A stretch of 64,000 bases of DNA from Methylopilaceae bacterium (GTDB lineage: Bacteria > Pseudomonadota > Alphaproteobacteria > Rhizobiales > Methylopilaceae), in the NCBI GenBank assembly GCA_048594375.1, contig JBMDXK010000009.1, forward strand, positions 26,288 through 90,287, in the 5' to 3' direction. Each line of letters begins with the position of its first letter. The first letter of the stretch is position 1. Positions 60,685 through 61,734 of this stretch are shown one piece after another. A model generated the notes under the pieces. It did not search any database and had not been told where the DNA came from. It saw only the letters and a program-made list of their open reading frames with translations. The position numbers and the translations under genes are program-made.

Positions 60685-61734
60685 CTAGCTGACCAAGCCG
60701 GTTTTAATAAGAATATTGGCAACCTGATCGAAAAAAACTTTCGGGATAAATTCACCTTTGGGAGATTTTTTCATCAATTCCGCCAACATATCCGGTTCGG
60801 GATAATAGATTACTCCGTTGTTCTCTTCGACTGTTTCGATAAAAGCACCAAGCATTTCCTTGTGGCCTTTGGCTACAACAATGGGTGCAGGAGTTTCTCC
60901 GCGCACATAACGGATGCCCAAGGCACCTTCTTCTGAAACCAGCAAGAGATTAGCCTTACCAATCCCCACGTTACCTGAGCTTTCCAGCAGTGCGTTGCGT
61001 TGGGAGCGCCGCTCACGGCGGATTTCGGGTGATCCATGCTCTTCCTTTTGCTCGCGTTTTTGTTCACTGACCGACATTTTGTTTTCGGATGTGAACAGCA
61101 TGCGTGAAAGAGGAATATCAGCGAGGGCAAAGAGGAGGATCAGAGCAATCCCCACCACAATGATAATCAGCAGCACATGTACGGAAGCATTGAGAACGCA
61201 ATTCAGACCGCAGGTGGGCGCCCACAGCAGGTCATTGAGATACATCCGGATAATAATCCATACCGCGCTGACCATCATAATCATGAGAACGAAGGCTTTA
61301 ATCAGGTCAAACAGGTTGCGTTTGGTGAAAATCTGTTTGATCCCGCTGACCGGATTAAGTTTGGTAAAGTCGATTTTACCGGCTTTTTCGCTGATGTGCA
61401 GCCCACGCATATCCATGAGAGTGGTAAAAATAGCGGCTGCGGCGGCCAGCCCAAGCAGCGGGAAAATGATGGATGTTGCGCTGGAAATAGCAAGCTGTAC
61501 GGAGTATTGCAGTTGCGTTGTGTAGTCGGTGCGCACATGGTACTGCGGAATTGACATCAGGTTCAGCAAGTGTTGACCCAGATAGCTGCCCCCCATGATG
61601 AGATAGGCCACCACAGCAATCAGGCGAGCGGTTGCCGGCAGATCGCGGCTGAAAGGAATATTGCCTTTTCGTTTCAGATCCCTCAGGCGTTTGGCCGAGG
61701 GCGGGAGATTTTTTTCTTCACTGTCACCGGCCAT
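60685..61734 (-). CDS. sctU: T3SS export-gate autoprotease/switch protein SctU (FlhB/YscU family), NPTH motif not conserved
   Basis: 349 aa with an EKNLPPSAKRLRDLKRKGNIPFSRDL N-terminus, four TM helices and GSPEIRRERR. At the NPTH position (aa 266-269, nt 60928-60939) the sequence reads VSEE. Confidence 0.88.
   Translation of the reverse strand: MAGDSEEKNLPPSAKRLRDLKRKGNIPFSRDLPATARLIAVVAYLIMGGSYLGQHLLNLMSIPQYHVRTDYTTQLQYSVQLAISSATSIIFPLLGLAAAAAIFTTLMDMRGLHISEKAGKIDFTKLNPVSGIKQIFTKRNLFDLIKAFVLMIMMVSAVWIIIRMYLNDLLWAPTCGLNCVLNASVHVLLIIIVVGIALILLFALADIPLSRMLFTSENKMSVSEQKREQKEEHGSPEIRRERRSQRNALLESSGNVGIGKANLLLVSEEGALGIRYVRGETPAPIVVAKGHKEMLGAFIETVEENNGVIYYPEPDMLAELMKKSPKGEFIPKVFFDQVANILIKTGLVS

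Follow-up and report, generated by a model that had tools for sequence, protein, structure and literature searches.

Canonical proteins of the FlhB/SctU family cleave themselves at a turn of sequence N-P-T-H, where the Asn side chain cyclises onto the Asn-Pro bond. Reviews call this motif a conserved hallmark and link its autocleavage to substrate switching; cleavage in canonical systems takes place right after folding and gives the conformational flexibility for the switch triggered by SctP, and uncleavable mutants fail in the export of intermediate substrates (PMC3040844, PMC6140923). In this paper we describe the SctU protein of a type III secretion system (T3SS) encoded in a stretch of 64,000 nucleotides, referred to here as the window, from a bacterium of the family Methylopilaceae. 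An earlier note on this DNA had found the motif to be missing from SctU. Our results show that the motif is absent, that the turn in its place lies between conserved strands, that the change is common to a monophyletic clade which includes RhcU proteins of Rhc-I systems, and that the flagellar FlhB of the same genome keeps NPTH.

The self-cleaving proteins YscU, EscU, SpaS, Spa40, CdsU, HrcU and FlhB belong to the same full-length Pfam family as the window SctU and share with it a four-helix membrane part and a C-terminal alpha/beta fold. The operon position after sctT is also common to the window SctU and the self-cleaving SctU proteins. The window protein differs from the self-cleaving SctU and FlhB proteins in that it has no N-P-T-H turn, the turn being one residue shorter and not conserved. 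The RhcU proteins of NGR234, of Bradyrhizobium symbiosis plasmids and of Rhizobium etli Mim1 are, like the window SctU, 345-349 amino acids (aa) long and without NPTH, and in all of them a short variable turn is followed by (V/I)G(L/I)RYVRGET..P and the gene has sctRST upstream. RhcU of Bradyrhizobium and R. etli fall in the same tree clade as the window SctU, and that of NGR234 is likened to it by alignment alone. The identity between the window SctU and RhcU of the Rhc-I and Rhc-II groups is just 27-32 %, and the window T3SS is unlike Rhc systems in that the order of its gene blocks is permuted, the genes are spread over more than one contig, and a secretin of the RhcC type was not found. 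We consider it likely that the window protein is an Rhc-type SctU that stays uncleaved, with a loss of the motif inherited throughout its lineage and an export order that is probably set in some other way.

The cleavage site region of SctU

The sctU gene (rhcU-type; 60685..61734, minus strand) encodes a full-length FlhB/SctU family protein of 349 aa. Its match to the Pfam family PF01312 (Bac_export_2; FlhB/HrpN/YscU/SpaS) has an E-value of 1.8e-61 and 208.7 bits, against a cut-off of 24.4, and residues 6-342 cover profile positions 1-332 of 335. The open reading frame (ORF) is unbroken and all family-invariant residues are kept. The place of N-P-T-H is taken by V266-S267-E268-E269, the turn between strands beta1 and beta2 according to HMMER, MAFFT and DSSP on a structure model. 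These four residues, aa 266-269, lie inside KANLLLVSEEGALGIRYVRGETPAPIVVAKG and map exactly to 60928..60939 on the minus strand. In HMMER pairwise alignments with the solved chains of FlhB and SpaS, S-E-E and a one-residue gap face N-P-E/T-H, and MAFFT alignments of 18, 81 and 159 sequences put the same residues at the motif site. The by-eye alignment with which the earlier note had placed VSEE there is correct to within one residue.

Neither NPTH nor NPEH, nor any other NPxH, occurs anywhere in the 349 aa, as the earlier note had stated for the first two. The sole Asn-Pro of the protein is N127-P128 (61353..61358, minus strand), which is part of LNPVSG in the conserved cytoplasmic loop between the second and third transmembrane helices and is not a cleavage site. 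P128 and G131 are invariant in the alignment of the clade, and FlhB has the same LNPxxG. An NPTH-like loop elsewhere in SctU can thus be ruled out, as the lone N-P at residue 127 belongs to this conserved motif. Profile alignment and prediction of the C-terminal domain, which the earlier note had proposed as checks, agree on the site, HMMER, MAFFT and AlphaFold2 all pointing to the same residues and to no alternative loop.

The AlphaFold2 model was built on a 49-sequence alignment and has a mean predicted local distance difference test score (pLDDT) of 86.1. Long helices at 31-65, 71-109, 138-175 and 177-217 are followed by strands and helices over 263-345, so that the model has the layout of the family, in which four transmembrane helices lead through a linker to a compact alpha/beta domain in the cytoplasm. 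DSSP assigns a strand to residues 263-266, a three-residue turn to 267-269 and a second strand to 270-275, and the block pLDDT over residues 261-290 is 91-93. At the place of NPTH the model has a plain, tight turn of a hairpin, and the fold around it is conserved.

Foldseek finds the cytoplasmic linker and C-terminal domain (about aa 215-349; 60688..61092, minus strand) to be homologous to the self-cleaving SctU_C/FlhB_C fold. The significant matches in the PDB are exclusively C-terminal domains of SctU and FlhB proteins, namely CdsU/CT091, EscU, YscU, PscU, FlhB, SpaS and Spa40, with target-normalised template modelling scores of 0.64-0.88. For the compact matches among the top ones, to CdsU (CT091), EscU, YscU and FlhB, the score is 0.66-0.88 and the root-mean-square deviation 1.3-2.9 A over 76-100 columns. 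The best matches are engineered uncleavable mutants (N262A, N262D and P263A of EscU; N263A and N263D of YscU) and the inactive CT091. We dropped this ranking as evidence on conformation, since it mostly goes back to the number of chains, which is one in the model and in these entries and two in the cleaved structures.

What replaces the motif

A phmmer search of 1.84 billion cluster representatives (50 % identity) gave 209 proteins at E<=1e-30. NPxH is absent at the turn in 134 of the 147 best full-length representatives among them, and the remaining 13 carry NPxH or a near variant. Among the NPTH-less proteins, entropy in this region peaks in the four columns of the turn and at the residue that precedes them (2.5-3.8 bits, compared with 0.06-1.5 bits at the conserved flanking positions), and 28 % of the residues in the turn columns are Gly and 15 % Asp. 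The flanks are conserved, with A261, the strand (A/V)(V/L)G(L/I)RY and P284. The span from A261 to Y276 measures 16 residues in 101 of the 134 NPTH-less proteins and 17 in all 13 bearers of the motif. Even the nearest homologues differ in the sequence of the turn, which reads for example GDGK, SGNN, FGDA or GDGV. In the Rhc lineage the N-P-T-H turn appears to have been replaced by a short, variable beta-turn rich in Gly, Asp, Ser and Glu, which is usually one residue shorter.

The variability of the turn bears on the question whether SctU might still be processed at a different site or in a different way, for instance by a protease of the cell that cuts the linker or through another nucleophile, so that a free C-terminal domain persists. 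The linker of aa 231-260, which has the lowest confidence in the model (pLDDT 66-72), would be accessible to a protease. As to another nucleophile, neither the turn nor its surroundings offer a candidate such as a conserved Asn or Asp-Pro. The turn columns are the most variable of the domain, and the sole Asn-Pro lies in the loop between the second and third transmembrane helices and is common to all family members. A turn that is variable and holds nothing conserved in place of the catalytic Asn-Pro speaks against self-cleavage by some other chemistry here. We regard processing by another route as unlikely, and favour an SctU that stays in one piece.

The CGxxC motif in the loop between the third and fourth transmembrane helices was considered as a compensation specific to the clade. 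It was ruled out, as it occurs in 110 of the 134 NPTH-less proteins but also in 11 of the 13 NPTH-bearing SctU proteins.

Some proteins that are otherwise of the NPTH type have near variants of the motif, NPTR and NPTE in P0183 and P0243 and NPMH in the flagellar FlhB P0027. These variants suggest that the Thr and His positions tolerate change while Asn-Pro stays. In one further protein (P0033) a variant was assigned only from the failure to match NP[TE]H.

Phylogenetic distribution

The three closest homologues of the window SctU are metagenomic (68, 65 and 54 % identity). Their loop is as long as that of the window protein and likewise lacks the motif, and the next ten homologues are also all without it. 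Searching contigs of named genomes with the single protein gave no match, but a query built from the alignment did find homologues there. SctU proteins without the motif are found in Hyphomicrobiales metagenome-assembled genomes with chromosomes of about 2 Mb, in the Halomonadaceae genera Salinicola, Halomonas, Billgrantia and Vreelandella, in several Pseudomonas, in Inquilinus, Roseomonas, Rhodomicrobium, Aureimonas and Mesorhizobium, and in Paracoccaceae and Acetobacteraceae. They also include the RhcU proteins of Bradyrhizobium sp. CCBAU 53351 and R. etli Mim1, whose clusters carry annotations of NolB, NolU, NolW or NolX, and the SctU of Sinorhizobium meliloti LMB1 pB. RhcU of S. fredii NGR234 (pNGR234a) reads ATLVYRG-TAVLIGLRY at this position and has no NPTH either; its gene belongs to a nolB-nolT-nolU-nolV-sctN-...-sctT-U cluster beside nopX and nopP. 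In the SctU of Salinicola tamaricis (L037) the turn region reads as unrelated sequence and the frame seems to be shifted, which could reflect a pseudogene or an assembly error.

A set of 60 genomes from the same family or order holds five SctU homologues that are intact (G003, G007, G034, G042 and G058), and all five lack NPTH, so that the loss is common to every intact protein among the related genomes in which the earlier note had suggested looking for it. No SctU in these 60 genomes exceeds 32 % identity to the window protein. One further SctU gene, from a genome of the same family (L098 in G032), seems to shift frame after about residue 270 and may be a pseudogene or an assembly error. The flagellar FlhB keeps the motif in all three relatives in which it was read (L102, L105 and L106), as does the FlhB of the genome itself, on contig C2, which reads VVVTNPTHYAVALKY. 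A second, NPTH-bearing SctU in the genome was ruled out, as the three PF01312 matches are this flagellar FlhB, the window SctU and a 102-aa protein similar to FlhB's C-terminal domain.

For the phylogeny, a tree of SctU and FlhB with 93 rows was inferred by an IQ-TREE quick search under LG+C20+F+G4 and rooted on flagellar FlhB. One clade, with a support of 99 in the Shimodaira-Hasegawa-like approximate likelihood ratio test (SH-aLRT), is made up of 66 rows, and all 66 are without NPTH. It holds the window SctU, the Rhc-I RhcU proteins of Bradyrhizobium and R. etli Mim1, and the group of S. meliloti pB, Pseudomonas and Halomonadaceae. The window protein belongs to a sub-clade of 33 rows (SH-aLRT 95) that are mostly from uncultured alphaproteobacteria. 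NPTH-bearing SctU proteins of injectisomes, for example from Burkholderia, and the FlhB proteins fall outside the NPTH-less clade. Since FlhB and the other SctU families carry the motif, the most parsimonious reading is that it was lost at the base of the Rhc-type clade. A small number of other NPTH-less rows (Paraburkholderia, P0238 and P0257) are unresolved near the base and may go back to the same loss event or to separate ones. Judged from the sequences compared here, the Rhc-type SctU clade as a whole has the absence of NPTH as a synapomorphy, which is thus not a peculiarity of a single gene. The earlier note had treated the loss as specific to this gene, and this part of it has to be given up in view of the 66 rows, the 134 of 147 representatives and the RhcU of NGR234.

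This distribution also answers the suggestion that the T3SS of a reduced genome is decaying and that sctU is turning into a pseudogene, with the missing NPTH as a degenerative lesion. Several features of the genome would fit such a decay: the T3SS genes lie apart on two or more contigs (Q-R-S-T-U and J-K-L-N-O on C42, sctD-sctV on C10), the sole secretin belongs to a Tad pilus locus, a dispersed 127-bp repeat lies between sctS and sctT, and the genome, at 2.28 Mb compared with 2.7-5.9 Mb, is a small one within its family. Against this, the SctU ORF is intact and of full length with every family-invariant residue present, the flanking strands are conserved with variation confined to the turn, all other T3SS ORFs examined are intact, and the same state of the loop is found in 134 of the 147 nearest full-length representatives and in RhcU of NGR234 and Bradyrhizobium. 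The clade-wide distribution refutes decay as the cause of the motif loss, and we think a degenerative lesion very improbable. Of the two readings offered in the earlier note, a non-cleaving SctU is supported by the lack of Asn-Pro, the shorter and variable turn and the continuous hairpin of the model, and decay is not needed to account for the missing motif. That a sequencing or assembly error or a misalignment conceals a real NPTH loop is hardly conceivable, given that the three independent metagenomic homologues (54-68 % identity) have the same loop length without NPTH, that HMMER, MAFFT and the structure model concur on the site, and that SctU has no NPxH at any position.

Possible consequences for Rhc injectisomes

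Without Asn-Pro, SctU would be unable to cleave itself, and a plain hairpin would keep its C-terminal domain covalently attached to the membrane domain. Rhc systems would then do without the flexibility of SctU_C that depends on cleavage, and also without the interaction of SctP with SctU_C, in the switch from early to later substrates. Their export order would presumably be set by transcription, by chaperones or by substrate signals, or it might be weakly hierarchical. The lineage may even have dispensed with the switch module altogether, having an uncleaved SctU, no ruler and no gatekeeper.

The symbiotic T3SSs of NGR234 and Bradyrhizobium secrete pilus, translocon and effector proteins. Table 1 of Gazi et al. 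2012 (PMC3574062) gives neither an SctP nor an SctW for any of the Rhc subgroups. In the genome of the window, the HrpJ/SctW domain (PF07201) has no match at E<=1, although a negative profile search is weak evidence. Two proteins have the Flg_hook domain PF02120 of the FliK/SctP type, one encoded next to flgD and the other beside an flhB-like gene that stands alone. The surroundings are flagellar in both cases, and a SctP linked to the T3SS was ruled out among them. The profile searches are consistent with a genome that shares the Rhc trait of having neither the SctP ruler nor the SctW gatekeeper. Beside the cluster no nolB, nolW, nopX or ttsI-type genes were annotated or recognised, though no search was aimed at tts-box/TtsI, nopA, nopB or nopX.

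We raise tentatively, leaning slightly against it, the broader idea that all Rhc injectisomes together make up a naturally switchless lineage, with one ancestral loss of the SctU turn, no SctP, no SctW, and functional effector delivery with an uncleaved SctU. Such a lineage would span at least 134 clusters (50 % identity) and reach beyond legume symbionts to Pseudomonas, Halomonadaceae, Inquilinus, Paracoccaceae and uncultured alphaproteobacteria with small genomes. If true, this would contradict the textbook view that NPTH autocleavage is universal and required for the export of intermediate and late substrates. The absence of the motif from an entire injectisome family amounts to a natural experiment on the purpose of SctU cleavage. 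The window gene itself is ordinary, a divergent but typical Rhc-type SctU whose missing motif is inherited and is no sign of decay. It is the pattern at the level of the family that deserves the attention of specialists, and the missing NPTH could also serve to mark Rhc-type systems in metagenomes by sequence alone.

Rhizobial SctU sequences have been public for decades. A statement that RhcU lacks NPTH or is uncleaved was not found in the open full-text literature, a search that covered the main comparative Rhc papers (PMC3574062, PMC3973906) and left subscription journals outside its range. PMC3040844, PMC6140923, PMC12442349, PMC1084347 and PMC6069116 are likewise silent on the matter. The family-wide absence of NPTH appears to be unstated in the literature, which is not to say that it can be claimed as unreported.

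Several points weigh against an uncleaved Rhc-type SctU and the wider conclusions drawn from it. The window SctU scores 217.8 bits with TIGR01404, the NCBIfam equivalog of injectisome SctU, which is under the cut-off of 358; this model is still the top NCBIfam match, with the flagellar FlhB model at 169.2 bits, and given the score below the cut-off the protein is best described as a divergent SctU. The support values of the tree are SH-aLRT only and come from a quick search, and RhcU of NGR234 was aligned and left out of the tree. That RhcU is uncleaved is deduced chemically from the missing Asn-Pro, and no experiment on it was found in the accessible literature. Proteins like SctP and SctW diverge fast, which makes a negative Pfam search for them weak. 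Finally, the T3SS of the window is unusual in its scattered genes, in the repeat between sctS and sctT and in that no dedicated secretin was found, and its functionality is not established.

The T3SS gene cluster and its genome context

The genome is that of an uncultured Hyphomicrobiales-related alphaproteobacterium and is reduced, with 2.28 Mb in 42 contigs at 99 % completeness. With non-flagellar sctR, sctT, sctJ, sctL and sctN as neighbours of sctU and a separate FlhB on C2, the setting is that of an injectisome. All genes of the cluster are on the minus strand. Upstream of sctU are sctT (61744..62544; PF01311, E=2.9e-45; TIGR01401, 181.5 bits, over the cut-off), sctS (62960..63229; PF01313, E=6e-15) and sctR (63232..63894; PF00813, E=6.2e-63; TIGR01102, 245 bits, over the cut-off). 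On the other side of sctU we find sctJ for the inner-membrane ring lipoprotein (59576..60301; TIGR02544, 195.9 bits, over the cut-off), a 259-aa protein in the position of sctK or nolU (58836..59615) with a weak match to PF06578 YscK (E=2e-6) and none in NCBIfam, the stator gene sctL (58253..58849; TIGR02499, 85.9 bits, over the cut-off) and the ATPase gene sctN (56894..58246; PF00006 and PF18269; TIGR02546, E=9e-172). A 170-aa ORF at 56385..56897 is assigned to sctO or y4yJ by position only, as it matches no family; a protein of the same size is found in this position in the relative L092 and on pNGR234a.

The gene sctQ lies just past the end of the window, in the region that contig C42 holds beyond it (90188-91246). 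Contig C42 carries the block Q-R-S-T-U followed by J-K-L-N-O, which is a permuted Rhc order, and the side of sctJ-K-L-N-O abuts hisB-hisH-hisA-hisF. The gene sctV and a gene for a 307-aa SctD-like protein stand alone between housekeeping genes on another contig (C10:175359-178410). The SctD-like protein matches PF21934 (E=1e-6) and, with 20.9 bits and below the cut-off of 27, PF23893 Y4YQ_C. In the relative L092, with a genome of 2.04 Mb, the genes follow the canonical Rhc order J-x-L-N-O-Q-R-S-T-U, and there is also a divergent sctV as well as a sctD of the Y4YQ_C type.

The claim of the earlier note that every other core ORF is intact holds within the window, with the qualification that no dedicated T3SS secretin of the RhcC1/RhcC2 type was found in the 42 contigs of the genome, where a gene in an assembly gap is possible. 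The single match to the secretin family PF00263 (C7:16280-17761) is inside a complete Tad/Cpa pilus locus, cpaB-C-D-E-F-tadB-tadC. In the relatives with 2-Mb genomes, CpaC-like secretins number two each in G061 and G062 and one in G063. Either the T3SS secretin was not assembled or has been lost, or the outer-membrane channel is shared.

In the 415-bp spacer between sctS and sctT (62545-62959), Tandem Repeats Finder detects 1.9 tandem copies of a 127-bp repeat (62709..62949; 98 % match), which interrupts no ORF. The repeat family is dispersed, with copies detected by blastn on at least eight other contigs of the genome, and Rfam gave no match over 60200-63300, the repeat included. As sctS and sctT abut in L092, the repeat was inserted inside the operon here. 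The spacer between sctU and sctJ (60302-60684; 383 bp) is AT-rich, with 37.6 % GC compared with 49.5 % in sctU, and its sole match elsewhere in the genome is one of 47 bp on C34. The promoter of the sctJ-K-L-N-O block is probably located in this spacer.

The stand-alone FlhB-like protein of 102 aa (TIGR00789, FlhB_rel; C28:5877-6185) begins past the point that corresponds to the cleavage site and is without NPTH, which makes it a second, unrelated NPTH-less protein of the FlhB fold in this genome. FlhB_rel proteins are like the window SctU in having the C-terminal domain fold of FlhB without an NPTH site, but they are soluble proteins of about 100 aa that start beyond that point and have no membrane domain, whereas the window SctU is a full-length membrane protein. 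The 102-aa gene is overlapped by 4 bp by a gene for a 715-aa FliK-like protein with a Flg_hook domain (C28:3733-6185 for the pair). On contig C32, beside the flagellar genes fliK-flgD, two adjacent paralogous ORFs (14903-15673 and 15705-16580) encode proteins of 256 and 291 aa with a near-identical Ser-rich N-terminus (M.ISxQxDxLSLxSSSGFENVLASTLTTQN...), and these are possibly secreted proteins.

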